Notes under the pieces: generated by a model
Told to the model about the DNA's origin: nothing
Database searches by the model: none
Seen by the model: only the letters and a program-made list of their open reading frames with translations
Shown: positions 22,970 to 39,750 of the stretch, in pieces
How positions within the stretch are numbered: the first letter of the stretch is position 1
Layout: each line of letters starts with the position of its first letter
Program-made: the position numbers and the translations under genes
Assembly (NCBI GenBank): GCA_964478705.1
Contig: CAYZIR010000002.1
Location: 23,760 to 87,759, forward strand
DNA from: an uncultured Candidatus Saccharibacteria bacterium
GTDB taxonomy: Bacteria > Patescibacteriota > Minisyncoccia > Phycocordibacterales > EsbW-18
Direction of reading: 5' to 3'
DNA length: 64,000 nt

Positions 22970-23147
22970 TGCGCCTTACCAGATTAACTTGGATAAGTAT
23001 GCCCCATAAGAAAAGCCAGTCTCACATTCAAGTTCGAGGTCCAAAGGGAAAATTTGTAAAAGATACTCCAGCAAATCGAAAAAAGAAGAATAACACCGTG
23101 GAACGAGTCCCTAATCCGGGATATGGAGATACCTAAGAATAACCAAC

Positions 23148-23176
23148 AATTCCGGCTTTATGCCGGAATTTGTGTT
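23148..23176 (+). terminator. rho-independent terminator of dnaK
   Basis: AATTCCGGC-tttat-GCCGGAATT followed by TGTGTT. Confidence 0.65.
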
Positions 23177-23201
23177 ATACAAGTGTCATGAATTCTTAAT
23201 T

Positions 23202-24686
23202 ATGCCTACTAAACGTCACACAATTTCTCTCAGCAAGCATCTGGATTTGACTCGCAAAAAATTGGAAAAGATTGGTGTTTTTGACGCAACCCTCGGTGTT
23301 GATACGAGACTCTTTATAGATCCTAAGCTTCTCATCAGATCTAAAATTCCCGAATTTAAGACGTCACGTTATAAAATACTGAAACATTTTGCCAAGCTGA
23401 TTCGCATTCATAAGCTATCTACTAAATCTTCACAGCTTGGCGAGATTGCGCTTTCAATGCTTGCGGTTCCCGAACCTCAAGGACTTGCGATTGGGTACGG
23501 ACATACGACGGATCGAGGTGTGGCAATTTCTGAATCAATCGCAAGAAAGATACTGTTACAGCTCAGTGAAATGATGTCTGTTGGATTGCAGGATAAAGAG
23601 TTGGTCGAACTAATGGCGCTGTTTGTGAAAGGATTTGCCTCCGACAGCATCAGTGATCTGTCGGCACATATTATTTATGACGATCTGTGTAGATATACAG
23701 AGCGAATAGCTAAAAAATTAAAGGTAGAAACAACACTTTTTGATGTAGGGGATAAAAAATACCAGTTACCTAAGCACCCTTTTAAAAACTCACAGGTAAT
23801 TTTTGTTCCTCACACTCTACTCAGCCCACTTCCTGTAGCTACTTCATGGGAGGAAATAGAAGCTGCTGCTGCACACAATCGAAAACTGAGGAAAACTTTT
23901 AGTGAAATTGTTAAGCCTAGTGTATATGCTGCGATCAAAGATTTGGAACGTCTGAATCCTGAGGAACGTGAGGATTTCAAGAGCGCGATAGAGAAGCTTG
24001 TTGAAGTCTATCAGGGTATTCGGGTATCGACATATAGCCTGCGACAAGATCGAAAGGGGTATTACGGCATCCAACCGTTTGTAGACAAGGAAGAGTCCAA
24101 TTATATTCCGTCTAACCTACCGACAACTGCGGAGGAACTAATCACTTCGGTTCGAGAGATTATCACACAGTACCAAAAATCTATTGAACATAATGCTGGT
24201 AATCGACTGCTCTATCATCGAACAAAATCAGGTTCAATTTTGAAAAATAAACCCCATAACGAAGACGTCGCTCAAAATTTGTTCTTCCAACTCGCTGATC
24301 AATACTGCTCAATGGCCAATATTCTTTTGTCCAGAGAGCCTAATGCGGGTATAGGTGCTGTTGATTTTTCATTAGGAAAAGGTTACGACTCTAAAATCTT
24401 AGTCGAAATCAAAAAATCTACCAACACTGGACTAGAGAGCGGCTACAAAAAACAAATAACGGCTTACGAGAAAAGCGAGTCATCAAAGCACTCTTTTTTT
24501 GTTGTGATTATCGTAAAGGAAGGAAAAAAGAAGAAAAATGAGTACCCCCCACAACTCCAAACGGTTAAAAATCTATACGACTCAAATGTCAGCAAATCTA
24601 TCTCTACTCCAGAATTGTTTATCATTGATGGCCTGATCTATCCCTCTCCCAGTAAGCGTCGTGAGAAAAGCAATACCTTATCTTAA
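23202..24686 (+). CDS. hypothetical protein with a PD-(D/E)xK-like motif near the C-terminus; candidate restriction endonuclease
   Basis: No recognised N-terminal domain; GAVDFSL...ILVEIKK fits D...ExK; AT-rich; first gene of a four-gene operon with an MTase. Confidence 0.4.
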   Translation: MPTKRHTISLSKHLDLTRKKLEKIGVFDATLGVDTRLFIDPKLLIRSKIPEFKTSRYKILKHFAKLIRIHKLSTKSSQLGEIALSMLAVPEPQGLAIGYGHTTDRGVAISESIARKILLQLSEMMSVGLQDKELVELMALFVKGFASDSISDLSAHIIYDDLCRYTERIAKKLKVETTLFDVGDKKYQLPKHPFKNSQVIFVPHTLLSPLPVATSWEEIEAAAAHNRKLRKTFSEIVKPSVYAAIKDLERLNPEEREDFKSAIEKLVEVYQGIRVSTYSLRQDRKGYYGIQPFVDKEESNYIPSNLPTTAEELITSVREIITQYQKSIEHNAGNRLLYHRTKSGSILKNKPHNEDVAQNLFFQLADQYCSMANILLSREPNAGIGAVDFSLGKGYDSKILVEIKKSTNTGLESGYKKQITAYEKSESSKHSFFVVIIVKEGKKKKNEYPPQLQTVKNLYDSNVSKSISTPELFIIDGLIYPSPSKRREKSNTLS

Positions 24687-24719
24687 TTTTATGGCCCTGT
24701 AGTAGGGTTGGGTTCAAAT

Positions 24720-25580
24720 ATGACCCCAGAACTGCTATATTTAAGGCCTCCCATGGCCACAAAAACGCAAACAAAGAAGGTGTTAGAGTCTGTTGGCCAG
24801 AAGCCGTATTTTCATGGTGATGATTTTGCCCTCTACCACGGCGATTCAATCGAACTCCTTTCAAAACTTCCTGAAAATTCAATCGACATGATTTTTGCCG
24901 ATCCTCCGTACAATCTCTCGAACGGAGGTTTTAGTGTTCATGCTGGACGCATGGTGAGTGTCAACAAGGGTGACTGGGACAGAAGTAAGGGTTTTCAAAA
25001 CGACTATGAATTTCATGTCCGCTGGCTCGAAGCCGTTCGTAAAGTACTAAAACCAGGAGGAACATTGTGGGTGAGTGGAACATATCACTCAATTTATCAA
25101 TGTGGCCATGCCATTCAATCGCTCGGATACCACATTTTGAATGATGTTTCGTGGTTTAAGCCAAACGCTTCGCCAAACTTAAGCTGCCGCTTCTTCACTG
25201 CAAGCCACGAAACATTAATTTGGGCACGCAAAGACAAGAAGGCAAAACACACCTTCAATTACGATAAAATGAAGAATGGTGATTGGGGTAGTGATTTCAT
25301 TAAAAAACCAGGGCTACAAATGCGCTCTGTCTGGTCTGTAGGAACACCAAAGCCGGACGAAAAGAAATTTGGTAAGCACCCGACACAAAAACCACTTGAA
25401 CTTTTGCGCCGTATTGTCCTGGCAAGTACCAAAAAAGGGGATATTGTTCTTGATCCATTCACCGGTAGTTCAACCACAGGTATCGCTGCTGCAAAAGAGG
25501 GTAGGAAGTTTATTGGTATTGATATGGAAAAGAACTACCTTGATCTTTCCGTTAAAAGGTTTAATTCTATTAAAATATGA
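24720..25580 (+). CDS. beta-class N6-adenine/N4-cytosine DNA methyltransferase
   Basis: Motif IV DPPY lies before motif I (DPFTGSSTTGIAA), i.e. beta-class permutation; the ORF track starts it at TTG 24708 but the first ATG is 24720. Confidence 0.85.
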   Translation: MTPELLYLRPPMATKTQTKKVLESVGQKPYFHGDDFALYHGDSIELLSKLPENSIDMIFADPPYNLSNGGFSVHAGRMVSVNKGDWDRSKGFQNDYEFHVRWLEAVRKVLKPGGTLWVSGTYHSIYQCGHAIQSLGYHILNDVSWFKPNASPNLSCRFFTASHETLIWARKDKKAKHTFNYDKMKNGDWGSDFIKKPGLQMRSVWSVGTPKPDEKKFGKHPTQKPLELLRRIVLASTKKGDIVLDPFTGSSTTGIAAAKEGRKFIGIDMEKNYLDLSVKRFNSIKI

Positions 25581-26098
25581 AAGAAGGTGGCTTTGGGGGA
25601 GGAAACACCATAACCGGATTAAACTTTGAAAAGGAGACGGATATCCTTTCTCTTTTGGCAACAAAAGCCGGATACGAAGTCAAAGACAACGTTATTTTCT
25701 ATGAAGGAAAGGAGGTTGCAAGAAACTATCGAAAAAATGGACTTTACAAGTTTCTCGAATCAAAAGGTGTCGACTATAAGAAAATTCTTTCCAAGAAACT
25801 CCTACCGGACGATGCACTTTATGTGATTTTAAACAACACTCTTTTTGTCATCGAAGTAAAGTTCCAAAAGGTTGCAGGTTCGGTTGACGAAAAGCTTCAA
25901 ACCTGCGATTACAAACGGAAACAGTACGCAAAATTGATGGCGCCTCTTAATATCGAGGTTGAGTATATTTATATTTTGAGCGACTGGTTTCGTGCAGAGT
26001 CTTATAAAGACACTTTAGATTACATAATCTCTGTTGGTTGTCAGTATTACTTCAAATATCTTCCTCTGCAAAAATTAGGATTGCCAGTACCGAACTAA
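25577..26098 (+). CDS. small PD-ExK-like protein, putative restriction endonuclease or partner subunit
   Basis: ATGA overlap with the MTase stop (translational coupling); DD...LFVIEVKFQK fits a D-x12-ExK core. Confidence 0.35.
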   Translation: MKEGGFGGGNTITGLNFEKETDILSLLATKAGYEVKDNVIFYEGKEVARNYRKNGLYKFLESKGVDYKKILSKKLLPDDALYVILNNTLFVIEVKFQKVAGSVDEKLQTCDYKRKQYAKLMAPLNIEVEYIYILSDWFRAESYKDTLDYIISVGCQYYFKYLPLQKLGLPVPN

Positions 26099-26106
26099 TC
26101 AAAAAA

Positions 26107-27789
26107 ATGCCTACAATAAATAATTCGACCAAGAAGACTCTTTCGAGTGTATTTGATAAGACTATTTTTAATATTCCTAGATACCAACGAGCTTACTCTT
26201 GGGAGGAAAGCAATTGGCGCGAATTGTGGGACGATATTAAAAATAATGTTCTAGAAAAAGACAAGGAGCATTTTCTTGGAGCAATAATTTATTATCATGG
26301 AGATTCCGGTGGCTCTCGATACACACATTATGAGGTCATTGACGGACAACAACGCATTACCACGCTCACAATCTTAATGCGTGTTCTATATGAAAAACTG
26401 AGAGAAAACAACGTTGAAGTCTATCAGAGATTTGCTGATGAACTCTATGAAAAATATATTGGTGATATAGAAAATGAAACTTTCTTCCTTAATTTAAGTA
26501 AAAAAGATCAAGTTTTCTTTAGAGAGTTTATCCAAAAGAGCGTTCCAATTAGAAAACAGGGGAAGTTAATTTCCAACAAAAGCATAAGAAAGTGTTATGA
26601 ATTTTTTGTAAAGAAAATCGATGACATTTCAAAAGAGAGCGGCATAAAAGAAATTGAAGAATTCTGTTGGGAATTAAAAAAGAAGCTCGAAACTAATTTG
26701 GTTTTTGTCGTCATTGATGTGAATACTGATGTAGATGCATATATGATTTTTGAAAGCATCAATTCCAAAAGACAAGGACTAACAACATCCGATCTTCTTA
26801 AAAACTATATATTTTCGGCTGCTGATCAATACGAAAAGATAAAGCCTGAATCAAAAAAATTATCAATTACAGAAGACGCATGGGACAGGATGGAACAAGA
26901 GCTAGACAGAATTGAAATAAACCAATATGTTCGACACTTTTGGATATCAAACTACGGAAAGGTTTTTGAGAAAGAACTTTATCAACAAATAAAACTCAAA
27001 TTCAATAATAATAACGAGGCGATATTAAACTTCTTTGAGAACGTCGTAACCGAGTCAGAGGCTTATTCGAGCATATTTAATGCAAACATTTCCAACTTTC
27101 CACAAGATGGTCTTCATGCGCTAGAACAACTACGTCAACTAAAAAATAGACAATACTACCCTTTAATACTATCTGCTTTGTCTGGGTGGCCTTCTCAGGA
27201 AGTTTCCGATCTCATAAAACAAATAGCTTCAGTGGCAGTTAGAAGAGCGCTTATTGGCAAAAACCCAAATGAACTAGAGAATTTCTTTGCTGAAAGCGCT
27301 TCAAAACTTAGAACCAAGAATGTTACCCCCCAAGATCTCATAACGATCCTTGCTACAGACTTCTGGATTGAAGACAGCGAGATCTTGGAAGAAATTAAAG
27401 ATACAGATTTCGAAGACCAGGAATACCTTGCAAAGTTCTTACTTAAGGAATTTGAAACAAGCAGTAATCCTGCCAATGAGAAAAGTCTTGGCAAGGTATC
27501 ACTTGAACATATTTTACCTAGAAATCCTGAGAGAGTTGAGGATTGGGATATGAAAGAAGATAGACAGACCGAGCTTGTTTGGAATATTGGCAATCTTGCC
27601 TTAATTGGTCAGACTTACAATAATAAGATGTCTAATAAATCTTTTTTAAAAAAGAAACCTTGGTTTAAGAAAACAGAAATTAAAACAACAGTTATTTTGG
27701 CAGAACACGAACAGTGGACAGAGAAGGAGATCTTAGAAAGAAACGCTCAGGTTGGAAAGTTTTTGATAAGATGGTGGGCAAAAAGTTAA
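26107..27789 (+). CDS. GmrSD-family type IV (modification-dependent) restriction enzyme-like protein (DUF262 + DUF1524)
   Basis: N-terminal DUF262 hallmarks (PRYQRAYSW, DGQQRITT); C-terminal His-Me/HNH-like block (SLEHILP...NIGNLALIG..YNN). Confidence 0.8.
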   Translation: MPTINNSTKKTLSSVFDKTIFNIPRYQRAYSWEESNWRELWDDIKNNVLEKDKEHFLGAIIYYHGDSGGSRYTHYEVIDGQQRITTLTILMRVLYEKLRENNVEVYQRFADELYEKYIGDIENETFFLNLSKKDQVFFREFIQKSVPIRKQGKLISNKSIRKCYEFFVKKIDDISKESGIKEIEEFCWELKKKLETNLVFVVIDVNTDVDAYMIFESINSKRQGLTTSDLLKNYIFSAADQYEKIKPESKKLSITEDAWDRMEQELDRIEINQYVRHFWISNYGKVFEKELYQQIKLKFNNNNEAILNFFENVVTESEAYSSIFNANISNFPQDGLHALEQLRQLKNRQYYPLILSALSGWPSQEVSDLIKQIASVAVRRALIGKNPNELENFFAESASKLRTKNVTPQDLITILATDFWIEDSEILEEIKDTDFEDQEYLAKFLLKEFETSSNPANEKSLGKVSLEHILPRNPERVEDWDMKEDRQTELVWNIGNLALIGQTYNNKMSNKSFLKKKPWFKKTEIKTTVILAEHEQWTEKEILERNAQVGKFLIRWWAKS

Positions 27790-27830
27790 AATAGGACAGA
27801 CACCTTTTTGAAAAATGGTAGAATGGGTGA

Positions 27831-28472
27831 ATGTACATCACCAAAATCGGCCATTGTTGCCTCCGTATCAAGGTTAACGGAGTAACATTCCTCACCGACC
27901 CGGGAGCGTATTCAGAAGGACAGGGGAGTGTCACGGGTATTGATATCATCCTTATCACCCACGAACATGGGGATCACCTCCACATCGAGTCGCTGAAAGA
28001 GGTGTTGAAGAACAATCCGACCGCAGACGTGATTACAAATGCAGGCGTCGGAGCTAAGCTTGGTGAAGCGGGGATTCCGTACACGATTTTGCAGGGAAGA
28101 GACTCATCCGAATCTCGAGGAATCATGCTCGAAGCATTCGATGCGAAGCACGAAGAGATCTTTGAGGACTTCGGTCAGGTGCAAAACACCGGCTATTTCA
28201 TTGCAGAGAAATTCTTTTATCCCGGCGACGCATTCAAAGACCCTGAACGCCCCGTCGATATCCTCGCGCTCCCCGTTGCAGGACCATGGTGCAAAATTGC
28301 TGATGCGGTTCACTATGCCCTGAGAGTGAAGCCTCGTGTCGCATTCCCGGTCCATGATGCAGGTGTCATTGAAGAGCGCCTCGGCAGTGCTCATGGCGCT
28401 CCCGCGCATTTCCTCCCAAAGCACGGCATTGAATTTGTCACTCTCAAAGAAGGTGATTCACACGAATTTTAG
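27831..28472 (+). CDS. MBL-fold metallo-hydrolase
   Basis: HEHGDH motif. Confidence 0.8.
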   Translation: MYITKIGHCCLRIKVNGVTFLTDPGAYSEGQGSVTGIDIILITHEHGDHLHIESLKEVLKNNPTADVITNAGVGAKLGEAGIPYTILQGRDSSESRGIMLEAFDAKHEEIFEDFGQVQNTGYFIAEKFFYPGDAFKDPERPVDILALPVAGPWCKIADAVHYALRVKPRVAFPVHDAGVIEERLGSAHGAPAHFLPKHGIEFVTLKEGDSHEF

Positions 28473-28487
28473 ACAGAATTTCTATAC

Positions 28488-29135
28488 ATGATCAAAGCAG
28501 TTATATTTGATATGGACGGGGTGATTTCTGACACGCAGAAACTCCATGCAAAAGTGGAATCTCGCATCCTTGCAGAGTTCGGCATAGTGCTTTCCCCCGA
28601 AGAAATTACGATGAGATATGCGGGCGTGAGAACACGCGAGTTCTTGTCTGACCTTTTGAATAAACAAGGAGCGGCCTACGACATTGAAGCTTTGCTCAAA
28701 GAGAAATGGGCTGCAATGGAGAAAGCAGCACAAGAAGAGGTTGAAGAAATTCCAGGCTCTGTCGCACTCATCACCGACTTACGGGAGAGGGGTATACCAC
28801 TCGCTGTTGCTTCCGCATCAAATCTTGAATATGTTCGCACCGTTCTTCAAAAACTCGGAGTATTTGAAAACTTTCAAGCGGTTGTGACAGGAGACATGGT
28901 ACAGAAAGGGAAGCCCGATCCTGAAAGCTTTCTTCTCGCTGCCGAGAAGTTAGGTGTCGCTCCTGAAGATTGTCTCGTGATAGAGGACGGAATCAGCGGA
29001 ATGGAAGCAGCAAAAAGAGCATCTATGTGTTGTATTGGATTGGTTGAAAACCTCAACAAAGAATACCCAACAAAAAACCTTGTTACCTCCATGAAAGATA
29101 TTTCACTCTCTTATATCCAAAGTCTCTCTACATAA
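28488..29135 (+). CDS. HAD-IA family hydrolase (beta-phosphoglucomutase-like)
   Basis: FDMDGVISDT motif I; C-terminal motifs K...EDGxSG. Confidence 0.8.
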   Translation: MIKAVIFDMDGVISDTQKLHAKVESRILAEFGIVLSPEEITMRYAGVRTREFLSDLLNKQGAAYDIEALLKEKWAAMEKAAQEEVEEIPGSVALITDLRERGIPLAVASASNLEYVRTVLQKLGVFENFQAVVTGDMVQKGKPDPESFLLAAEKLGVAPEDCLVIEDGISGMEAAKRASMCCIGLVENLNKEYPTKNLVTSMKDISLSYIQSLST

Positions 29136-29140
29136 AGCGT

Positions 29141-29169
29141 TATTGACAAAAACACTATTGTGGTGTATA
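29141..29169 (+). promoter_or_regulatory. consensus-like sigma70 promoter
   Basis: TTGACA, 17-nt spacer, TATATT; a GGAGG SD lies 6 nt before ATG 29225. Confidence 0.6.
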
Positions 29170-29224
29170 TTGGCAGTACGAATGCAAGAGTGCATTCATG
29201 CTCTTTCCCAAACGGAGGTTCACA

Positions 29225-29509
29225 ATGACCACGAAGACCGAAGTGCCCGTCGCGATGATCACCCCCGCCACCGAAGGAAAGTGGAAGCTCGAAGGGTACG
29301 ACACCTTCGAAGGTGGTCCGGACGCGTACTATCCCATCGAGGGTGAGTACGATTCGCAGGCGGAGGCAGAAGCTGCCGCCAGCAAGCAACTTCAGAATCT
29401 TGAGAAGTCCCAGCCGAGCAGTTCCTCGGGTGGTCAGACCTTCCAAGGGATCCAAGATCGAATCTATACCGTGTCGCCGGACGGTACCCGTCGCCGTTTC
29501 ATCGGCTGA
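29225..29509 (+). CDS. hypothetical acidic protein
   Basis: Strong GGAGG SD; start trimmed from ORF 29198. Confidence 0.5.
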   Translation: MTTKTEVPVAMITPATEGKWKLEGYDTFEGGPDAYYPIEGEYDSQAEAEAAASKQLQNLEKSQPSSSSGGQTFQGIQDRIYTVSPDGTRRRFIG

Positions 29510-29543
29510 TCTTCCAGATCACAGACAAACCAAGGAGGAAGCC

Positions 29544-29870
29544 ATGTACGACGGATTCTATTGCCTTGTGAAGCATCAGGTCGCGGTGACGCCTCAGCTT
29601 CTCCGAAAGCTTCTCGAAAAAGCGCAAGTGATGGCGAGAACTCGGGAGAGCAGAAGCCACTTTCTCACTGAGGATGCCACCGGCGTCGTGACGACAGTCT
29701 ATCAGCACAACGTGATGGGCTCGATCGCCGGCATCCGCTTCGACGCCGAAGTGGAGAGCGATCTTGGCAAGGGTCACGTCGCTTTCCTCGTCGAGGAGAA
29801 TCATCTCGACGAAACAGACATGAGCACCTTGCGCTTCTTCAGGGTTCCCCAGGGAGCCTGGGTTCGCTAG
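29544..29870 (+). CDS. hypothetical protein
   Basis: AGGAGG SD 6 nt upstream; start trimmed from ORF 29313. Confidence 0.5.
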   Translation: MYDGFYCLVKHQVAVTPQLLRKLLEKAQVMARTRESRSHFLTEDATGVVTTVYQHNVMGSIAGIRFDAEVESDLGKGHVAFLVEENHLDETDMSTLRFFRVPQGAWVR

Positions 29871-29894
29871 ACTTATCCAACGGTTCATCACCGC

Positions 29895-29937
29895 ACCACC
29901 CGCGGAGGCCACGCCTTCTTGGGTGGTCTTTTTGTTT
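29895..29937 (+). terminator. rho-independent terminator
   Basis: ACCACCC...GGGTGGT stem followed by CTTTTTGTTT. Confidence 0.6.
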
Positions 29938-29957
29938 AGTTCAATATGCAGAGGAGC

Positions 29958-30227
29958 TTATTCTAAGTTTCTGCAGAAACCGAGAACCCTTGCACCGGTG
30001 TCGGTGAGGAGATGTTCAAGGGCAAGTCCGTTTCTCCGTTTTGTAATCAAACCAGCCAACGCAAGCTTCCGTAGGTGCTCAGATATCGTTCTGAAATCAC
30101 CTCGGAGTGTGTCGGCGATGTCGAGTCCTGATAGTTTTGGCCGGCGTTCAAGCACGAGCAATATGTTGAGTCGATGAATATTTGCACACCCCTTAAAAAT
30201 TCGTTCCAATTCTTTTTGGTTTTTCAT
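29958..30227 (-). CDS. ArsR/SmtB-family HTH transcriptional regulator
   Basis: 89-aa winged helix (NIHRLNILLVL...LSGLDIADTL...ISEHLRKL); TATACT -10 directly before the ATG, so leaderless. Confidence 0.75.
   Translation of the reverse strand: MKNQKELERIFKGCANIHRLNILLVLERRPKLSGLDIADTLRGDFRTISEHLRKLALAGLITKRRNGLALEHLLTDTGARVLGFCRNLE
29967..29980. promoter_or_regulatory. palindromic operator candidate copy 1, inside the 3' end of the arsR-like CDS
   Basis: Perfect 14-bp palindrome GTTTCTGCAGAAAC. Confidence 0.45.
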
Positions 30228-30246
30228 ACTAGTATAAATCTGCCTT

Positions 30247-30268
30247 CTTAGTTTCTGCAGAAGCTAAG
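30247..30268. promoter_or_regulatory. palindromic operator candidate copy 2, in the divergent promoter region
   Basis: 22-bp near-perfect palindrome CTTAGTTTCTGCAGAAGCTAAG. Confidence 0.55.
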
Positions 30269-30290
30269 AATACTCATTTGGGATAAAGGG

Positions 30291-30842
30291 GTGGTAAAAT
30301 GCGAGTCTATGAAAAAACCGACGCGTCAAAAACGAACAAAGATGGTTGTCGTCAACGACTCTATGCAAAAGGGCTATCGGTATGAGCTCGTAGAACCAAT
30401 CGGTAAAAATTTTGATCCCACATTCAAACCAGATCTGACGCCTAAAGAAATACTCAAGCTCGGCATCTTCGGCGGGCTTCACCTGAACGATTGCACAAAA
30501 GAGTTTCCGAAGAGCTGGTTTGCTGGCGTGCAGTTTTCAAGCACAGGAAAACACGAAGCGAAGCTAAACTATTTTGGTGTAAACGCGTCGCAATCATTGG
30601 CTGAATGGAAACGTAAGGGCTGGGTTTATAAAGATGACCCGCGAGGGTGGTTTCAGTGGTACTGTCGCTACTACATGGGTCGCCGTATCCCGAAAGAAGA
30701 CGCGCGACAAATCAAACGCTGGAAGGCAATCACTCGTCATATTGCCCAAATCAAACACAACTGCAGAGCGGGGGATATCATGTGTCGCCCCGTCCAACGC
30801 CAAGCGCTCCTCCACTGGGCATACGATTCACGAAAATTTTAA
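30291..30842 (+). CDS. hypothetical protein with a conserved W/Y/R-rich C-terminal block
   Basis: GTG start; GWFQWYCRYYMGRR...IKRWKAITRH block of unknown family. Confidence 0.45.
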   Translation: MVKCESMKKPTRQKRTKMVVVNDSMQKGYRYELVEPIGKNFDPTFKPDLTPKEILKLGIFGGLHLNDCTKEFPKSWFAGVQFSSTGKHEAKLNYFGVNASQSLAEWKRKGWVYKDDPRGWFQWYCRYYMGRRIPKEDARQIKRWKAITRHIAQIKHNCRAGDIMCRPVQRQALLHWAYDSRKF

Positions 30843-30855
30843 ACTTCTTAAGCAT

Positions 30856-30895
30856 TTGCACATTCTCAAGTTCTTAAGAACTTGAGAATGTGCAA
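30856..30895. repeat. 40-bp perfect palindrome
   Basis: ttgcacattctcaagttcttaagaacttgagaatgtgcaa; all 20 base pairs verified by hand. Confidence 0.9.
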
Positions 30896-30951
30896 GTGTG
30901 CTGTGAGAGGTTGGGCGGGTTTTCTGAGCTCTATTCAAGCCTATTTCTATT

Positions 30952-30973
30952 CTCTATTTCTGCAGAAACAGAG
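30952..30973. promoter_or_regulatory. palindromic operator candidate copy 3, upstream of gene 31081
   Basis: CTCTATTTCTGCAGAAACAGAG, with a perfect 12-bp core. Confidence 0.5.
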
Positions 30974-31080
30974 AAGCCTCTTTTGTTAATTCGCACCATT
31001 TCACATTCTTGTCTTTTTAAGTCCGAGGCGTATACTCGCGGGAGATTGAACCAACCGATAGACGGGAAAGGAGATGACTC

Positions 31081-31626
31081 ATGAAAGCGATCGTTGGATA
31101 CGATAGGGATTTTGGTGTGCAGTTCTTCCGTCGAACGTTCGCAGAACTAACATCACAAGGTATCGATCTGTGGAAAGCGATTACAGAGGAAGAGCGAGAA
31201 TACATCGCTCAAAGGCTCGGTGACACGCTGGTTTTGCATCCATATTCTAAACTAGGGTCACCCTGGATTTCAGACGATTTTAAGAAGCTTTTCAAAGATG
31301 GGAAGTACTGCGTCGATCGGGTGACACACGACCGTGCTGAACTCATGGCAAATCAAATTCTGATCTACCAAGGCATCGTCTCCCTGGGAGGAATCTGGAA
31401 ATTCAGAGATGGTCGTTCGACCGGTACGACTCGTGCTTTCTACGAAGACGTTGCGGCAAAGCTCTTTCGTATCGCTGCTCGGTGGCCTTATCTGAACTCC
31501 GACGAACGGAGGGTTCTGAATGAGGTGGGAGAACACACGAGCTTGTGGATTGATATCTTGGCTCAGGTGATGGGGAATGACTATCTCGAAGAACTCGGGA
31601 CAGGCAGTCCAATCGTTCTCGCCTGA
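31081..31626 (+). CDS. hypothetical protein
   Basis: AGGAG SD 8 nt upstream; terminator downstream. Confidence 0.55.
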   Translation: MKAIVGYDRDFGVQFFRRTFAELTSQGIDLWKAITEEEREYIAQRLGDTLVLHPYSKLGSPWISDDFKKLFKDGKYCVDRVTHDRAELMANQILIYQGIVSLGGIWKFRDGRSTGTTRAFYEDVAAKLFRIAARWPYLNSDERRVLNEVGEHTSLWIDILAQVMGNDYLEELGTGSPIVLA

Positions 31627-31639
31627 TAGCAGTTCATAC

Positions 31640-31670
31640 TGGCTCCGCGCATATACCCGCGCGGGGTTTT
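31640..31670 (+). terminator. rho-independent terminator
   Basis: CCGCGC-atataccc-GCGCGG followed by GGTTTTCTTATT. Confidence 0.55.
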
Positions 31671-31689
31671 CTTATTATCTACAACCTTT

Positions 31690-31724
31690 AAAAACAAAAC
31701 GGGTCCGCACAAACGTGCGAACCC
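31690..31724 (-). terminator. rho-independent terminator for minus-strand gene 31750..32283
   Basis: GGGTTCGCAC-gttt-GTGCGGACCC followed by GTTTTGTTTTT on the minus strand. Confidence 0.6.
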
Positions 31725-31749
31725 TGTGAAAACGATGGGGAAGAACAGA

Positions 31750-32283
31750 TCAGGCAGTGCGACCACGACAGATGTTGATCGTGTGCCGAACGTCACTCGC
31801 GTCGTACTCGTTGAATCTCTCTCCGGGGTCCTCTCCATCCTTGTAATGGATAGAAGAGATGCGTTTCGCGAATCGCTCGAGCGCCGGAACGTGTCGCTCG
31901 CTACCGATCTTCTCCATGATCTCGAGGATCAGAGCACGGTACGAACGATCCTCTCCTTCGAAGAACTCATCCCACTCGAGGATGCTCGCGATGCGGTCGG
32001 CATCTTCTTTGCCTACCGCTTCCTCGATAGCGACTAGCAGATGCAAGAAACCGTCGTCGGGTGTCTTCAGAATCAACACACCATTTTCACGCTCGTGTTC
32101 GATGAGCGAGAGAATCGCATCGATCGCACCGGGGAACTTGTTCGCCCTCAAGTGCATCGCGAGCCACTCACTCCTAGCAAGCTTGGCGCAGTAGTTGGAA
32201 AAACCGGGGCGACCCTGGATCACGTCGCACAAGACCACCCTAGCGGTCTCCAGGATCTCTTCCTTGCTCATCACTACTGGCAT
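31750..32283 (-). CDS. hypothetical protein
   Basis: AGGAG SD 7 nt upstream on the minus strand. Confidence 0.55.
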   Translation of the reverse strand: MPVVMSKEEILETARVVLCDVIQGRPGFSNYCAKLARSEWLAMHLRANKFPGAIDAILSLIEHERENGVLILKTPDDGFLHLLVAIEEAVGKEDADRIASILEWDEFFEGEDRSYRALILEIMEKIGSERHVPALERFAKRISSIHYKDGEDPGERFNEYDASDVRHTINICRGRTA

Positions 32284-32385
32284 GCTGTTCTCCTCTGGTT
32301 TGATGGTTGCCTAGGATATACTCTGAAGACAGAGTACCTTATTTACTGTGATATGTCAAATCGCACAATGAGAATAACAATTTAT

Positions 32386-32416
32386 ATCAAAAAAGACTCT
32401 GCGCGTGGCAGAGTCT
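32386..32416 (-). terminator. rho-independent terminator for minus-strand gene 32430..32747
   Basis: AGACTCTGC-cacgc-GCAGAGTCT followed by TTTTTTGAT on the minus strand. Confidence 0.6.
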
Positions 32417-32429
32417 CGTGGGTTTGTGT

Positions 32430-32747
32430 CTAGGGCGACGGACAGTTCTTTTCGAAGCAGATCGGCACTCCACTGTTTCGGAGTGCCCGAGCAATCGCGA
32501 CCATCGTCTCTTGGTGGCGATTGCACACCGCCGTGATGGTTTGTACGGAACCGGGCGAGCGAATCTCCATCCGCACGCCGGTCTTGATTTCACCGGTGAC
32601 CGCAAAAGCGAGCTTCACCTTCCGCTCGGGACACCGGCCGTTGACCTGTCTGATTGCGCCGGGCTTGATGCTAGCGACCCCCGGCACCTGTGCAGTGAGT
32701 TCTGCAACGTTCCTCGCGAATTCGGTTGTTTGGGAGTGCGCCCCCAT
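32430..32747 (-). CDS. hypothetical protein
   Basis: GGAGGA SD 4 nt upstream on the minus strand. Confidence 0.5.
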   Translation of the reverse strand: MGAHSQTTEFARNVAELTAQVPGVASIKPGAIRQVNGRCPERKVKLAFAVTGEIKTGVRMEIRSPGSVQTITAVCNRHQETMVAIARALRNSGVPICFEKNCPSP

Positions 32748-32879
32748 TAATCCTCCGGAGTAGTGGTGCGTCCGGAGCGATTATTACAGCCATGTCGATA
32801 TTTGTCAATCGTTCGCGATGAGTTGCTGTTTTATATGAAAATCCCGCCGTTGGCAAAAAAGCCTGGGCGGGAAGATGTC

Positions 32880-33254
32880 TCAGAGAACGATATCTTCGAG
32901 GAACTTGTCCGTCGTTCGAAGAAGGAGCTCGATATGATCCTTGCTCGCGAAAATCTGGTTTTCACCCTGGATTAGCCCAAAAATGTCGCACTTCAACTGA
33001 TCGAGAAGATGCGCGACGATTGCTTGAGCCAGCGGTGTTAGCCTGTACTTCTCGTACGAACCAACCTTGTGGACATCTCTCTCAGAGAAGAGTCGAGAAC
33101 TCCCATCTTGAGATCTTCCGTCGACGAGCACGGCTAGCTTCTCCCGCAACTGCCTCACGAATTCTGGGCAGAAACCATTGATGACTACGGAAGAAGTTCG
33201 CAGAGACGGGAGAGCCGGCGTGGGCACTGTGGCAGGCTTTCTTTTTTGCATCAC
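32880..33254 (-). CDS. hypothetical protein
   Basis: AGGAGA SD upstream on the minus strand; weak resemblance to wHTH proteins. Confidence 0.4.
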   Translation of the reverse strand: MMQKRKPATVPTPALPSLRTSSVVINGFCPEFVRQLREKLAVLVDGRSQDGSSRLFSERDVHKVGSYEKYRLTPLAQAIVAHLLDQLKCDIFGLIQGENQIFASKDHIELLLRTTDKFLEDIVL

Positions 33255-33376
33255 TTTCTCCTATCGGTTATTACTCCACGAAGAAAGTACTGTATATTTT
33301 ATATGAAGTCAATACACTCACGCTGATGCACCATAGGTCATTGAAATTTCATAAAAAACTGTCATAATAGTCGCCT

Positions 33377-34468
33377 ATGGCAAAGGACTACTACTCCATT
33401 CTCGGCGTTTCAAAGAGTGCTTCAAAAGACGACATCAAAAAAGCATTTCGAACACTCGCGCACAAATACCATCCCGATAAAAAAGGTGGGGATGAAGCAA
33501 AATTTAAGGAAATCAACGAGGCGTACGGTGTTCTTTCCGATGATTCAAAACGTAAACAGTACGATTCATTCGGCAGTGCTGGACCTGGCATGGGTGGTGC
33601 AGGGTTTGACCCGCGTGGGTTCGGTGGCTTCGCGAATGGCCAAGGGTTTGATTTTTCTGGGTTCGCCGGAGCCGAAAACGGTTTTTCATTCGATCTCGGT
33701 GATATTTTCGGTGATATTTTCGGCGGTCGTGGAGGTGGTCGGGTTCGCCGTGGGCGGGACATCTCGATAGACATCGAACTCGACTTTAAAGATTCTATCT
33801 TTGGTACTACGCGGAATGTTTTGGTAAAGAAAGCAAATCTCTGTGGCACGTGTAAGGGTTCGGGTGGCGAGCCGGGAAGCCAGATGAAAAAATGTGAGAC
33901 GTGCAATGGTCAAGGTAAAATTTCTGAAACACGTTCTTCGTTGTTCGGTAACTTTTCGACCACCACCACGTGCGCTACGTGTAACGGTCGCGGAGAAACC
34001 CCACTAACACAGTGTTCAACATGTAAAGGTGCCGGCATTGTGAAAGAAGAAAAAGATATTCGTATTGCAATTCCTGCAGGCATCGAAAACGGTGAAATGA
34101 TTCGTTTGACGGGAGCTGGTGAAGCGATTCAGCACGGTTCTGCGGGCGACCTCTATGTAAAAATTCACGTAAAGGCGCACAAGATTTTCGAAAAAGAGGG
34201 ATTTGATTTGGTCACCTACCTCCCCATAAAAATTTCTGAAGCGGTGCTGGGAACAACGAAAAAACTTGAAACACTTGAAGGCGTCGAAGAAATTGTTATT
34301 CCGTCGGGTTCAAAAGATGGTCATGAAATAAGAATCCGCGGAAAAGGTGTACCCGCAAGTGGTGGGAAGCGGGGGAATCTCCGTGTTGTACTCGAGTTGG
34401 AAATCCCTCAAAAGCTCTCGAAGAGCGAACGCGAGTTGTTTGAAAAGCTTAAGGAACAGGGGATGTAG
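33377..34468 (+). CDS. dnaJ: chaperone DnaJ
   Basis: J-domain HPD, G/F-rich region, four CxxCxGxG zinc-finger repeats; TGTCATAAT -10 element 8 nt upstream. Confidence 0.9.
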
Positions 34469-34490
34469 CGACACAACAAAATAATTCTTA

Positions 34491-36278
34491 ATGAAACAAA
34501 CTTTTGCAACAATTGTTCGGGCATGCAAACTTGCGTGGGGCGCCACTCCATGGACGTCATTCATTTTGATCGTACTCCATGCGCTCATAGCACTCCTTCC
34601 GTTGGTGCAAGCAAAAGTAACGGGGTCTGTCATCGACTCGGTTGTTTCCTCACTTTCGCACGGCGTCGGTGTCCCTGTCATGCTTGTTGCTCTCTACGGT
34701 ATCGTGTGGGTGACAACGCGCCTCGCTCAAGCGGTGCGTGGTTTTTTCGACAAGCGCTGGCATTTGAGTGCTCAGGATGAGGTTGATATGACCGTGATGC
34801 GTGCGCGCACCAAAATTGATCTTGCACACCATGAAAACGCTGAGTTCCAAAACTTGATGACGCGTGCCTTTAACCGGAGCAACTTTCCCATCATCACGCT
34901 TGCCGATATTCAGTTCGACAACATCGGATTGATTATCGGTATCATCGGTTCGGCAGCACTCGCACTCTCATATCCGCTCATCTTCGTCATCGTCGTCGGA
35001 AGCCTCATTCCATCATTCATGGTTGAGGTTCGCTACGGCAACAAAAAATGGAACATTTGGTCTGAAAACAGCCCTCGTCAGCGCATGTACGGCACAATCA
35101 GAGGCCACATCAACGGCAAAATCGGCATCATTCAAACGAAGATGCTCCAAGCGGCCGACAACTTGATTGAGCGAGCACGTGGCATTCTTGCATCATTTAG
35201 AGAGGAGCAGTTCAAGGTTGATCGCGCTGACTTCACATGGAGAGTCGTCGCATCGTTGATTGGTGCTGTCGGTGTGGGCACAGCCTTTTACCTCATCGTG
35301 CAAAGTGTCATCCGAGGAGAAGCAGGCGTTGGTGACATCGTATTCTTGACGGGCGTTCTTGCACAATTCGCGGGTTTGAGCACCAATCTTCTTTCAAGCA
35401 TCGCTCGAATGTATGAATCGACCCTCTATGCAAAGGATATTTTTTCAGTACTCGATACGAAGCCAGCAATTGCTGTTTCTGCTCATCCGGTTGCACTCAA
35501 TCTCACCTCAGCGCCCACAATCGAATTCAAAAACGTCTCGTTTAAATACACGGGTTCTGAGGTATGGGCAATCAAAGATGTATCGCTCACCATCAAGCCT
35601 GGAGAAAAGCTCGCACTCGTCGGTGAGAACGGAGCAGGGAAGACGACACTTTTGAAACTTCTCTCACGCATCTATGATCCGACCGAGGGTGAGATTTTGG
35701 TTAACGGCATTTCGCTTCGTGATATTCATCCGGACGAATGGGGCTCGTACCTCGCAATCTTGCTTCAAGACTACCGTATCCATGAATTCAGCGTGGCAGA
35801 ATCAATCGCGATGGGACGCCCTGATGGAGAAGTCTCTCAAGCACGAGCGAAGCAAGCAGCCGAGCTCGCGGGAGCGCACGAATTCATTACCGAGCTAGCT
35901 GATGGGTATGAGGCGCAAATCGGACGAGAGTTCGCGAACGGTATCGAACTTTCAAAAGGTCAGGAGCAACGTGTAGCACTTGCACGCACACTCTACCGCG
36001 AAGGGTTCGTTGTTATTCTCGATGAGCCGACCGCATCGGTTGACTCAATTGCCGAAGAGCGATTCTTCAATCAGATTGAGCAGGCGGTATCAGAGAAAAC
36101 ACTCCTCTTGATTTCGCATCGCTTCAATACCGTACACGGCGCAGACCGTATCGCGGTCTTTGATCACGGCACGCTGGTCGAGCTCGGTTCGCACCATGAC
36201 CTCTTGAACAAGAAGGACGGCCACTACAAGAAAATGTGGGAAAGTCAGGCAAAATCCTACGTTGAGGCCATTTCATAA
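34491..36278 (+). CDS. ABC transporter permease/ATP-binding protein (exporter type)
   Basis: Six-TM N-terminal domain; Walker A GENGAGKTT, signature LSKGQEQR, Walker B ILDEPT. Confidence 0.85.
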   Translation: MKQTFATIVRACKLAWGATPWTSFILIVLHALIALLPLVQAKVTGSVIDSVVSSLSHGVGVPVMLVALYGIVWVTTRLAQAVRGFFDKRWHLSAQDEVDMTVMRARTKIDLAHHENAEFQNLMTRAFNRSNFPIITLADIQFDNIGLIIGIIGSAALALSYPLIFVIVVGSLIPSFMVEVRYGNKKWNIWSENSPRQRMYGTIRGHINGKIGIIQTKMLQAADNLIERARGILASFREEQFKVDRADFTWRVVASLIGAVGVGTAFYLIVQSVIRGEAGVGDIVFLTGVLAQFAGLSTNLLSSIARMYESTLYAKDIFSVLDTKPAIAVSAHPVALNLTSAPTIEFKNVSFKYTGSEVWAIKDVSLTIKPGEKLALVGENGAGKTTLLKLLSRIYDPTEGEILVNGISLRDIHPDEWGSYLAILLQDYRIHEFSVAESIAMGRPDGEVSQARAKQAAELAGAHEFITELADGYEAQIGREFANGIELSKGQEQRVALARTLYREGFVVILDEPTASVDSIAEERFFNQIEQAVSEKTLLLISHRFNTVHGADRIAVFDHGTLVELGSHHDLLNKKDGHYKKMWESQAKSYVEAIS

Positions 36279-36340
36279 GGATTTTTGGGCAAATTGATGG
36301 GGGAGTTGCTTTTCTTGTTAAACGTGCTATTATTCTTCTC

Positions 36341-36640
36341 GGAAGTTAGAGTGTTCTTTTGGGTTGACTAAGGCTCTATCGCGAGGAATCGGCACAGGGG
36401 GTGCTTGAGACCGCGATATACCGTGTGGCGACCATGCATGCAGTGGAGCGACGACTACCTCCGGTCTTCGGTCTCCTGTTCCATGAAGCAATCGCCCTGT
36501 CATTCCTGGTTGTTAAGACCTGGAGTGCGACGCCGAAAAAACCCATCCGGAAGTTCACTGTAACTTCCCCCATCAATGAGCGAAATAGCGAGATGTCCCC
36601 CTCGCTATCGAACTCCTCTTGGTGGGGCTTTTTTTATACA
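36341..36640 (+). ncRNA. candidate structured non-coding RNA or cis-leader of unknown class
   Basis: TGCTATTAT -10 element at 36325; about 300 nt with several hairpins (GGAAGTT-cactgt-AACTTCC, ATAGCGAG/CTCGCTAT); ends GGTGGGGCTTTTTTT; no convincing ORF. Confidence 0.3.
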
Positions 36641-36669
36641 AAACAGGCTCGCTGTGCTATATTTTTTCC

Positions 36670-38055
36670 ATGACTGAGGGCACACAGGTAACCATGGAGT
36701 CAATCATCAGCCTCGCTAAGCGACGCGGGTTTGTGTATCCCGGCTCCGAGATTTATGGCGGAATGGCTGGAATGTATGACTTTGGCCCATACGGTGTTGA
36801 ACTCTTAAACAACATCAAAAAGGCTTGGTGGGAAGAACACGTTCAAAAACGTGACAACTACGTTGGTCTTGATTCGGCGATGTTTAAGGATCCGCGTGTT
36901 TGGGAAGCGTCTGGACACACCAGCGGTTTTTCTGACCCGCTCTCTGAGTGCAAAAAGTGCAACACCCGCATCCGTGTTGATAAAGAGTTGGAAAAGATAG
37001 GCGTTACCGCTGACGAAAAAATGACCGAGGCTCAACTGAACACGCTCTTTGACGAACACAAGACAAAAATAAAGTGTCCTAAGTGTGGAGCAAATGACTT
37101 CACACCCGTCCGTGCGTTTAACCTTTTGGTAAAGACAAACATGGGCGACTTCACCGGCAAGAACGAACAGCCGGTCTACCTCCCAGGAGAAGCGTGCCAG
37201 GGAATCTATTTGAACTTCAAAAACGTCGTGGACACCACACGCGTAAAGATTCCTTTTGGTATCGCACAAATTGGTAAGGCGTTCCGCAATGAAATCTCGC
37301 CACGCAACTTCTTGTTCCGCACGCGTGAGATGGAACAAGCCGATACACAATTTTTTGTTCGCCCGAATGAAAACAAAGAAGCATACGATCGCATCAAGAA
37401 CGAACGCTTTACCTGGTATATAAAAATGGGCATCCGAGAGGAGAATTTGCGTTGGAAACAGCACGAGAACCTCGTTTTTTACGCTTCTGATGCATGGGAT
37501 ATCGAATATAACTTCCCATCCTACGGCTTTGACGAGATGGAGGGTATCCACGACCGCACCGACTACGATCTGACCCAGCATATGAAGCATTCAGGAACCG
37601 ACCTGAACTATACGGACCCGCATACCGGAGAAAAATACATTCCATGGATCTTGGAAACATCGGTCGGGCTTGGACGCATGTTCCTTGCATTCATCTCTGA
37701 CGCGTACGCGGAAGAAGGTGTTGGTGAAGAGTCTCGTACGGTTCTGAAGCTTTCTCCAAAGCTTGCACCAATTAAAGCAGCGGTTTTCCCGCTCTTGAAG
37801 AATAAACCCGAGCTCGTCGAGAAGGCTCGCGCGGTATTCGATATGTTAAAAGAACGCGTTCGATGTGAATTCGACGACAACGGTAACATCGGCAAACGCT
37901 ATCGAAGGCAGGATGAGATAGGCACACCGCTCTGCATCACGATCGACTTCGACACGCTTGAAAACGACACCGTGACCGTTCGCGATCGCGACACCATGGA
38001 GCAGGCGCGTGTCCCTATCTCTGAGCTTCTCGCACGTGTTACCCGCGACCTCTAA
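36670..38055 (+). CDS. glyQS: glycyl-tRNA synthetase (alpha2 class II, archaeal/eukaryotic-like)
   Basis: SLAKRRGFVYPGSEIYGG N-terminus; TGCTATATT -10 element 6 nt upstream of the ATG. Confidence 0.85.
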   Translation: MTEGTQVTMESIISLAKRRGFVYPGSEIYGGMAGMYDFGPYGVELLNNIKKAWWEEHVQKRDNYVGLDSAMFKDPRVWEASGHTSGFSDPLSECKKCNTRIRVDKELEKIGVTADEKMTEAQLNTLFDEHKTKIKCPKCGANDFTPVRAFNLLVKTNMGDFTGKNEQPVYLPGEACQGIYLNFKNVVDTTRVKIPFGIAQIGKAFRNEISPRNFLFRTREMEQADTQFFVRPNENKEAYDRIKNERFTWYIKMGIREENLRWKQHENLVFYASDAWDIEYNFPSYGFDEMEGIHDRTDYDLTQHMKHSGTDLNYTDPHTGEKYIPWILETSVGLGRMFLAFISDAYAEEGVGEESRTVLKLSPKLAPIKAAVFPLLKNKPELVEKARAVFDMLKERVRCEFDDNGNIGKRYRRQDEIGTPLCITIDFDTLENDTVTVRDRDTMEQARVPISELLARVTRDL

Positions 38056-38059
38056 ATAT

Positions 38060-39007: not shown

Positions 39008-39010
39008 AAG

Positions 39011-39040
39011 AAAAAGACCGCGGGGTTCCGCGGTCTCGGC
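39011..39040. terminator. bidirectional terminator
   Basis: GACCGCGG-ggtt-CCGCGGTC; A-run on its left gives a U-run for the minus gene. Confidence 0.6.
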
Positions 39041-39094
39041 GTCAGGGCGCCATCGATTCTGCTCCTGCTAGGGGCGACTGCCTCGAAACTCACA

Positions 39095-39370
39095 CTAGCG
39101 ACTCCTCAACTTCTCAAGGTTTTCTACAAAAGTTCGGAGACCCTCAATCATCTCTCCGAGAAACTTGATAGAAAAACTTTGAGTGAAAGTTGCATTGGAG
39201 TATCGAATCCAGACGAAGGTCTCACCGTCCTCATAGAACAGTGCGTCCTCGCAGAATGCGTACTCGATGATGTCCTCGGTGGTAGCCGAGTACAAATCAT
39301 CTCGCTCGAGCACCACTACTGAGCTGATATCAGCCCGAGAGGGTAGCCACTGTGGGATTTCAGAGTACAT
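39095..39370 (-). CDS. hypothetical protein
   Basis: GGAGG SD; TTGACA -35 upstream on the minus strand. Confidence 0.45.
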   Translation of the reverse strand: MYSEIPQWLPSRADISSVVVLERDDLYSATTEDIIEYAFCEDALFYEDGETFVWIRYSNATFTQSFSIKFLGEMIEGLRTFVENLEKLRSR

Positions 39371-39745: not shown

Positions 39746-39750
39746 TGTTT

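Follow-up and report, generated by a model that had tools for sequence, protein, structure and literature searches.

Shine-Dalgarno-led small-gene cassettes in variable slots between dnaK and dnaJ of a Parcubacteria chromosome

The DNA analysed here, called the window throughout, is a bacterial chromosome stretch of 64,000 nt which carries, between a HAD hydrolase gene and dnaJ, a segment (29136-33376) with eight small open reading frames (ORFs) labelled O1 to O8. As the initial annotation had described, they lie on both strands; they encode proteins of 89-181 amino acids (aa). All eight are present as called genes in public assemblies, and each save O4 is alone in its 90%-identity cluster. 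Six of them (O1, O2, O5, O6, O7 and O8) possess a Shine-Dalgarno (SD) sequence, GGAG or GGAGG, 4-7 nt ahead of the start codon. A related locus, L085 (Logan SRR12762276, also in GCA_964634615.1), was chosen through relatives of O4 at ≥90% identity, and comparison with it separates the segment into a conserved O3-O4 block and two variable slots which hold the six SD-led genes. The principal features are listed below in window coordinates; GC3 denotes the G+C content of third codon positions and UTR an untranslated region.

22970..33376, dnaK-dnaJ gap: 10.4 kb of accessory DNA splitting the ancestral grpE-dnaK-dnaJ operon; the segment studied is its right-hand 4.2 kb
28488-29135, HAD hydrolase gene, left neighbour of the eight-ORF segment
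29136..29956, plus strand, slot 1: self-contained O1-O2 cassette; L085 homology ends at the HAD stop codon (29135) and restarts at 29957
29143..29171, plus strand, O1-O2 promoter: sigma-70-type TTGACA-17-TATATT, 11/12 match, giving a 5' UTR of about 46 nt
29225..29509, plus strand, O1: 94 aa, SD-led (GGAGG at 29214-29218, 6 nt before ATG 29225), GC3 0.70
29544..29870, plus strand, O2: 108 aa, SD-led (GGAGG at 29534-29538, 5 nt before ATG 29544), GC3 0.72
29895..29938, plus strand, O1-O2 intrinsic terminator: hairpin plus UCUUUUUGUUU
29958..30227, minus strand, O3: 89 aa, ArsR/SmtB-type winged-helix repressor without an SD, with a -10 box beside its ATG, GC3 0.44
30309..30842, plus strand, O4: 177 aa, predicted leaderless, host-style gene with TGgTAAAAT 8 nt before its ATG
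30893..33340, slot 2: four single-gene cassettes, O5 on the plus strand and O6, O7 and O8 on the minus strand
31081..31626, plus strand, O5: 181 aa, SD-led (GGAG at 31070-31073, 7 nt before ATG 31081); promoter-like site 31009-31036, terminator 31641-31678
31750..32283, minus strand, O6: 177 aa, SD-led (GAGGAG 6 nt before ATG 32283); terminator 31724-31701
32430..32747, minus strand, O7: 105 aa, SD-led (GGAGG 4 nt before ATG 32747); own promoter 32808-32780 (11/12), terminator 32417-32393
32880..33251, minus strand, O8: 123 aa, SD-led orphan (GGAG 6 nt before ATG 33251, a better start than GTG 33254); terminator-like site 32858-32842
33341..33368, plus strand, dnaJ promoter: TTGAAA-16-(TG)CATAAT ending 8 nt before the ATG; L085 homology restarts here
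33377-34468, dnaJ, right neighbour of the eight-ORF segment
38995-39516, slot 3, flanked by the TrpRS and AspRS genes: contains a 91-aa SD-led orphan (39095..39370, minus strand)

The SDs that the initial annotation had named at six genes are all present, with the start of O8 moved from GTG 33254 to ATG 33251. SD strength was scored by pairing the -20 to -3 region of 66 curated window genes with the anti-SD sequence, using a cut-off of ≤ -6 kcal/mol. Scored systematically in this way, SD frequencies are unequal: seven of the eight genes of the segment pass, but only 4/52 of those lying beyond the dnaK-dnaJ gap (Fisher p = 6e-6; Mann-Whitney p = 4e-5). The score of O4 is spurious because its GGGGTGG belongs to the extended -10 box TGgTAAAAT, and the true SD-led count is therefore six, with duplex energies of -7.0 to -10.7 kcal/mol. 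Of the 52 host genes, 19 (37%) have a -10-like hexamer whose end lies 4-11 nt (mode 6-8) ahead of the start codon, compared with 3.5% of internal ATGs (p = 6e-15). Not one of the six SD-led genes has such a start-adjacent box, and O4 has one. The description of the host genes as SD-poor with a -10 element near the start is thus borne out. With the -10 box 6-8 nt from the ATG in 37% of host genes, those genes, and so many genes of this host, are predicted to be leaderless; for the same reason, a promoter ending 8 nt from the ATG, the dnaJ mRNA is predicted to be leaderless as well.

A further style of leader occurs in the host. G-free, C/A-rich leaders with telomere-like CCCTAAACCCTAA repeats lie ahead of ribosomal-protein genes and dnaK (17258-17297, 18922-18961, 19703-19742, 21055-21094), and leaders of this style also stand ahead of DnaK in the related locus L096 and of ribonucleotide reductase (RNR) in L105. 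They may be the alternative to the SD that this lineage uses for highly expressed genes.

The backbone of L085 is that of the window: restriction-modification, HAD hydrolase, variable genes, the ArsR-like O3, O4, variable genes, dnaJ, GlyRS and TrpRS. Nucleotide homology between the two (about 82%) is confined to the HAD gene (28488-29135), to O3, O4 and the hairpin behind them (29957-30892), and to dnaJ from 33341; no L085 homology was found between 30892 and 33341. The slot edges are the exact ends of conserved genes. The counterpart of slot 1 in L085 is 1.6 kb long with two other genes, and that of slot 2 is 4.8 kb long with six other genes, of which the three adjoining dnaJ are SD-led (-7.1 to -11.2 kcal/mol). 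In slot 3, where the window has its 91-aa orphan, L085 has a different SD-led gene of 123 aa. The genes of the segment therefore fall into two classes with respect to relatives: L085 lacks the six SD-led genes at the corresponding positions, while it shares O3 and O4 with the window at about 90% aa identity (90% for O3 by itself). Since this pair is conserved, host-style and situated between the variable parts, the slots are independent of one another. The regulator which the initial annotation assigned to the island exists, as do its palindromes, but it is a resident gene, and two of the three palindromes belong to the conserved backbone with it.

Several differences between the two loci lie outside the slots. 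DnaJ is only 60% identical between window and L085, yet HAD, O3, O4, GlyRS and TrpRS are 88-95% identical (33377-36278 compared with L085 10930-12296), and the ABC-transporter gene at 34491-36278 is missing from L085; together these suggest that the patch affected by recombination reaches past the right-hand limit first given for the segment. A 102-aa membrane protein (MKTPTPLRNA...) is found beside an O3-like ArsR regulator in L085 (4774-5082), L097 (448-756) and L091 (957-1412), but not in the window, whose slot 1 carries O1-O2. Two more SD-led small ORFs occur in the window outside the gap, at 61699-62190 (163 aa, GGAGG before a GTG) and 48155-48349 (64 aa), neither with a Pfam match.

The slots hold the six SD-led genes as self-contained units, each composed of a -35/-10 promoter, a leader of about 25-45 nt, an SD at 4-7 nt and an intrinsic terminator. 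The TTGACA-17-TATATT promoter reported earlier is present, and so are the intrinsic terminators, behind O2, O5, O6, O7 and O8; the slot hairpins are taken as terminators because they have GC-rich stems with T-tracts. An RNA thermometer at the SD-led genes, which adjoin heat-shock genes, was considered and dropped, the 5' UTRs folding no better than shuffles and the proteins not being heat-shock proteins.

Five of these six genes fall into small families; elsewhere the family members are found in similar slots, on contigs that are from Patescibacteria or resemble theirs. When 1.84 billion representatives were searched exhaustively with HMMER, there were about 53 matches for O2 (best identity 45%), about 29 for O5 (44%), about 22 for O6 (51%), 5 for O7 (46%) and none for O8, the gene of which is nevertheless called in NCBI and Logan assemblies. 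A word-indexed search with concatenated queries, of such low sensitivity that it missed the query proteins themselves, returned two partial O1 relatives and none for O2 or O5-O8. O1 is a small domain that is C-terminal in two larger proteins, P0016 (65% identical) and P0017 (52-54%), over about 86-90 aa, and the gene of P0017 is SD-led too. The ORFs are unbroken, and the families are delimited by residues that their members conserve. O7 itself has no match to DUF2103 (Pfam PF09876) at E ≤0.1; 4/6 of the aligned members of its family, which are 36-46% identical to it, do match (best E 1.2e-10). DUF2103-like domains have been described as Menshen effector domains and in association with type III CRISPR (PMC12065111). 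Remote-homology and structure searches thus yielded small families for O2, O5, O6 and O7, but no specific fold for O2 or O5. The predicted structure of O5 is all-alpha (pLDDT, the per-residue model confidence, 82) and that of O2 alpha+beta (pLDDT 83); neither model has a specific match among PDB folds, nor has O2 among viral models (BFVD). O6 is helical and HEAT/alphaRep-like. PDB profile searches for O2, O5, O6 and O4 returned only weak helical-bundle or repeat noise, and the sole match of O1-O8 in Pfam, PHROGs, PADLOC and NCBIfam is the helix-turn-helix of O3.

The relatives of the SD-led genes were then placed in their own loci. Where the context of O1, O2, O5, O6 and O7 homologues is readable, the contig shows Patescibacteria-type synteny and its core genes have no SD. 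In L096, whose DnaK is 87% identical to that of the window, the O2 homologue sits between dnaK and dnaJ in a 12-kb gap, directly after an unrelated membrane protein. The O5 homologue in L092 is between the TrpRS and AspRS genes, that is, in slot 3 of the window. Homologues of O6 and O7 adjoin O3-like regulators; those of O6 in L091, L098 and L105 are all SD-led, as is the O7 homologue in L097 beside an ArsR-like gene. A metagenome scan with alignment A5 added six short loci. Only two homologues carry a source name, from metagenome-assembled genomes (MAGs) of the Patescibacteria group and the Parcubacteria group, the O6 relative P0040 being from Parcubacteria. A GGAGG-type SD at 4-9 nt precedes the homologues in nearly every readable locus, the exception being the O5 homologues in L103 and L104, which share a weak AGGAA. 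Core neighbours in these loci (DnaK, DnaJ, TrpRS, AspRS, RNR, MsrA/B, PcrA) have no SD. Among homologues with 33-50% protein identity the SD is kept while the remaining upstream sequence differs.

A survey of the lineage covered 83 loci and 1585 ORFs, using a crude ORF caller and an SD threshold of ≤ -8 kcal/mol at the first ATG. The SD rate was 0.9% for genes conserved in ≥5 loci, 8.0% for singletons and 13.5% for GC3-rich singletons, against an internal-ATG null of 3.5%. The mode of SD spacing was 6 nt. SD-led genes were shorter (145 vs 201 aa), occurred in fewer loci (1 vs 10; p = 2e-11) and were enriched in the dnaK-dnaJ gap (8/85 vs 32/1199; p = 0.0035).

On this evidence we regard the segment, with a probability of roughly 0.6, as a mosaic of flexible-genome cassettes lying at a hot spot for recombination in the chromosome of a member of the Parcubacteria (Paceibacterota). 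The SD contrast accords better with a division that runs through the whole lineage, the core genome being free of SDs and the flexible genome led by them, than with a single foreign import. That homologues only 33-50% identical still have the SD points to a signal upheld by selection, which would mean that the ribosome of this lineage still can, and does, use SD pairing. Two initiation modes would then exist side by side, with leaderless transcripts or G-poor leaders for the core genes and SD-led initiation for the flexible gene pool. As the slot edges match the ends of conserved genes and no recombinase was found, the cassettes would most likely be swapped when DNA that has been taken up recombines homologously with the conserved flanks. 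We put forward only tentatively the wider proposition that both regimes hold throughout the lineage, with core genes leaderless or G-free and avoiding SD-like sequences, and accessory 'conflict' cassettes strictly SD-led through deep divergence. As to the products, our guess, prompted by the neighbouring restriction/GmrSD genes and by the DUF2103-like O7, is that they are small cytoplasmic proteins of inter-genomic conflict, be it defence, anti-defence or toxin-like.

The initial annotation had proposed a recently acquired element from an SD-using donor, that is, one mobile island from an SD-using phylum with its own ArsR-like regulator and operators. Part of this stands: six genes are SD-led and absent from L085, they have consensus sigma-70 promoters and terminators, and their composition is odd at third codon positions. 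GC3 is 0.69-0.72 for O1, O2, O6 and O7 and 0.58 for O8, compared with 0.44-0.52 for O3, O4 and O5 and 0.46 +/- 0.06 for the host. The higher GC noted earlier is therefore strong in the GC3 of five genes and slight in bulk (0.45-0.53 vs about 0.47). The tetranucleotide signature of 29-33 kb, which had been suggested as a check, is not deviant but host-like (r 0.66-0.78; window mean 0.735), the defence block to the left giving r 0.29-0.54. O3 and O4, about 90% conserved and host-style, break the supposed island into two slots instead of one block, and the homologues that are named or resolved by context are from Patescibacteria or on Patescibacteria-like contigs, so that no donor from an SD-using phylum is visible. 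No integrase, recombinase or transposase was detected when every gene between 23160 and 33254 was scanned with Pfam, NCBIfam, PHROG and PADLOC; the window has no tRNA, the slot edges have no direct repeat, and the sole repeat family is the operator-like palindrome. The cassette was also sought in phage and plasmid records, where tblastn with the concatenated proteins matched only the conserved O4. A single imported island is on these grounds highly improbable. An integron cassette array was likewise rejected: there is no integrase, and the cassettes are oriented both ways and carry promoters of their own (no attC model was run).

If the units were instead moron-like remnants of Parcubacteria phages or mobile elements, the SD would be the expression style of the element. 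The own promoter and terminator, the differing composition, the insertion between genes that are adjacent in relatives, the defence genes adjoining the slots and the jumbo-phage homologues of O4 all agree with this. On the other hand no SD-led gene has a PHROG match at E < 0.1, a scan of IMG/VR found no relative of the O5 family, O2 lacks a viral fold match, the 10.4-kb gap contains no structural, integrase or replication genes, and a phage that has adapted to a host without SDs should have no need of one; we think this origin unlikely. That the SDs are non-functional relics, the anti-SD having been lost and the genes being recent, perhaps unexpressed, undecayed imports, would agree with the unameliorated GC3, with the avoidance of SD-like sequences by core genes (0.9% vs the 3.5% null) and with the scarcity of the anti-SD motif in Parcubacteria considered below. 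Relics would, however, hardly keep GGAGG at 4-9 nt among homologues of 33-50% identity with otherwise different upstream sequence, nor leave ORFs intact, families defined by conserved residues and a spacing distribution peaking at 6 nt, and we give this explanation very little credence. More room must be left for the view, compatible with the structural side of the mosaic reading although still doubtful, that the cassettes are unrecognised toxin-antitoxin or anti-phage modules, with O1-O2 and O8-O7 as two-gene systems. Paired small genes do share the gap with restriction-modification, GmrSD/HEC-06 and PDC-M36A-like genes, the corresponding gap of L085 likewise contains a restriction-modification system, and the O7 family matches DUF2103, described in Menshen effectors and type III CRISPR (PMC12065111). 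PADLOC nonetheless has no match for O1, O2 or O4-O8, the pairs are not conserved (in L096 an unrelated membrane protein precedes the O2 homologue, and for O8 there is no homologue), and O8 and O7 have separate promoters and terminators.

Against the mosaic of cassettes with a functional SD, which we prefer, several points must be set. Tsurumaki et al. found the anti-SD motif in only 48% of Parcubacteria (PMC9297842), and in a lineage without it SDs could not act by pairing. The 64-kb window has no rRNA, and a text search of all the related loci found no 16S rRNA 3' end; a literature search turned up this single paper reporting that the anti-SD is often absent from Parcubacteria, and no paper on leaderless genes in them. 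Internal GGAGG in core coding sequences has an observed/expected ratio of 0.90, but control motifs deviate equally (CCTCC 0.81, GGACG 0.88, GGGAG 1.14). The GC3 of the SD-led genes is consistently higher than in the resident genomes, which repeated import from a richer-GC pool would also fit. In the lineage survey the caller missed O1, O2 and O7 in the window itself, and the singleton class includes spurious ORFs. Lastly, O1-O2 and O8-O7 are not kept as pairs elsewhere, and PADLOC, PHROG, Pfam and PDB searches with the SD-led proteins were empty.

The resident O3 passes the Pfam profile HTH_5 (22.8 bits, cutoff 22) and falls just under the cutoff of HTH_20 (26.6 bits, cutoff 27); with NCBIfam HTH_metalloreg it gives E 3.5e-11 and 42.7 bits against a cutoff of 55. 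Inspection of its 89 aa found no CXC motif and no C-terminal alpha5 extension, and it is probably a member of the ArsR group that does not sense metal. A 12-2-12-type palindrome, TTCTnnGTTTCT-GC-AGAAACnnAGAA (26-32 nt), is present in three copies within 1 kb, where about 2 one-mismatch hits would be expected by chance in the whole window. These sites, and the hairpin which closes the conserved block, are as follows.

29959..29990, palindrome site A: TTCTAAGTTTCT-GC-AGAAACCGAGAA, within the 3'-terminal part of O3, bordering slot 1; kept in L085-L088
30243..30274, palindrome site B: between O3 and O4, in their divergent promoter region; conserved in L085
30852..30899, hairpin after O4: perfect, 22 bp, -34.3 kcal/mol, z -8.1, no U-tract; right end of the conserved block
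30948..30979, palindrome site C: in slot 2, about 30 nt ahead of the O5 promoter-like site; shares 84% identity with site A; absent from L085

From its position site B is likely to be an autoregulatory operator of O3, and L097 has a similar palindrome ahead of its O3 homologue. Since site C lies inside slot 2 near the O5 promoter-like site, the resident repressor may also govern the incoming O5 cassette.

The family of O4 is very large and highly conserved, with 8000 homologues or more, of which hundreds share about 70% identity; its members occur in Parcubacteria, on rhizobial (mega)plasmids, where they overlap the end of a TspO gene, and in jumbo phages. O4 has no Pfam or PDB match. Alignment A6 of the family (18 sequences) has 52 invariant columns and two conserved cysteines, and the jumbo phage YerA41 annotates its O4 homologue as a structural protein. 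The hairpin at 30852-30899 has a 26-nt palindromic core, TTCTCAAGTTCTTAAGAACTTGAGAA, in common with a site at 60100-60137, 29 kb away, and this repeated palindrome looks similar to a repetitive extragenic palindromic (REP) element.

Every relative of the host DnaJ is from a Patescibacteria/Paceibacterota MAG (Nomura-, Taylor-, Zambryski-, Kaiser-, Adlerbacteria and similar; best identity 61%), and from these relatives and synteny the chromosome is assigned to the Parcubacteria (Paceibacterota). In 35/65 related loci dnaK is ≤600 nt ahead of dnaJ; in the other 30/65 the gap is 0.6-8.7 kb, which makes the dnaK-dnaJ junction an insertion hot spot across the lineage. The left part of the gap in the window encodes a PDC-M36A-like protein, a methyltransferase with a PD-(D/E)XK nuclease and GmrSD/HEC-06, followed by an MBL-fold protein and the HAD hydrolase. 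Within it the block 23160-27789, with the PDC-M36A-like protein of 508 aa, the N6/N4 methyltransferase plus PD-(D/E)XK nuclease and the GmrSD/HEC-06 type IV restriction enzyme, has low GC (0.33-0.41) and deviant tetranucleotides and is the compositionally foreign part of the dnaK-dnaJ gap; in its place L085 has something different, an Eco47II-type restriction-modification system.

Chimerism of the assembly was rejected for 30866-42283, where two independent Logan contigs (SRR16481186/182) agree at 100% identity. Further Logan contigs carry the HAD gene with O1-O2 (L090) and positions 29924-30885 (L089), and one 96-kb NCBI contig covers the whole region. The only breaks of the Logan contigs fall inside the perfect palindrome after O4 (30866-30885). 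Reproduced by independent contigs which break at this palindrome and nowhere else, the region is not a chimeric assembly.

What is new in this locus is a set of flexible cassettes in a hot spot which are marked by an initiation signal abandoned by the core genome. Bacteria of the candidate phyla radiation have reduced, unusual ribosomes, and translation initiation in them has barely been studied. A clean division of SD use between core and flexible genome would make SD use by these ribosomes testable from 16S 3' ends and expression data. If it is real, the anti-SD would be retained mainly or only for the flexible genome; alternatively, the SD-led genes could be translated conditionally, compare the sequestration of the anti-SD in Bacteroidota. 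An upstream SD would then be a simple marker of flexible-genome genes in these organisms, and one that recognizes recently exchanged genes from sequence only in MAGs, where composition-based detection of islands is weak. The O2, O5, O6 and O7/DUF2103-like families and the O1 domain, so far seen only on Patescibacteria-type contigs, together with the abundant O4 family, would also become targets for functional work on symbiont-host or phage conflict.

Among known systems phage morons come to mind, which Hendrix and colleagues reportedly described in 2000 as independent promoter-gene-terminator units between conserved genes. Each SD-led gene, or the O1-O2 pair, similarly has its own promoter, leader and terminator and a GC3 unlike that of its flanks, and in relatives the genes on either side of the units are contiguous or have other content between them; the setting differs in being a hot spot of a bacterial chromosome and not a prophage, with no phage genes nearby and no phage homologues. 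With flexible islets and defence islands the segment shares wholesale replacement between close relatives, edges at the ends of conserved genes, the lack of a recombinase, and restriction-modification, type IV restriction (GmrSD) and candidate defence genes as neighbours. It departs from them in that the hot spot splits grpE-dnaK-dnaJ and recurs in a candidate phylum-level lineage (30/65 loci), and in that the small genes use another initiation signal than the core genome.

In the Bacteroidota translation is said to be SD-independent with a few genes retaining an SD (work attributed to Baez 2019, Jha 2021 and McNutt 2023). There as here the core genome is essentially SD-free with G-poor leaders and a minority of genes keeps canonical SDs. 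Here, however, many core mRNAs look leaderless, with the -10 box 6-8 nt from the ATG, and the genes which retain an SD are accessory, orphan-like cassettes and not ribosomal protein genes; the anti-SD is reported as often missing in Parcubacteria (PMC9297842). O3, finally, resembles the ArsR/SmtB repressors with 12-2-12 operators in being a small winged-helix protein that passes Pfam HTH_5 and in having three palindromes of this type around it, one of them in its own divergent promoter; the gene of the L097 homologue, too, is preceded by a similar site. It differs from these repressors in having no recognisable metal-sensing Cys/His motifs, in belonging to a conserved backbone, and in the placing of one palindrome inside its own coding end and another inside a variable cassette.

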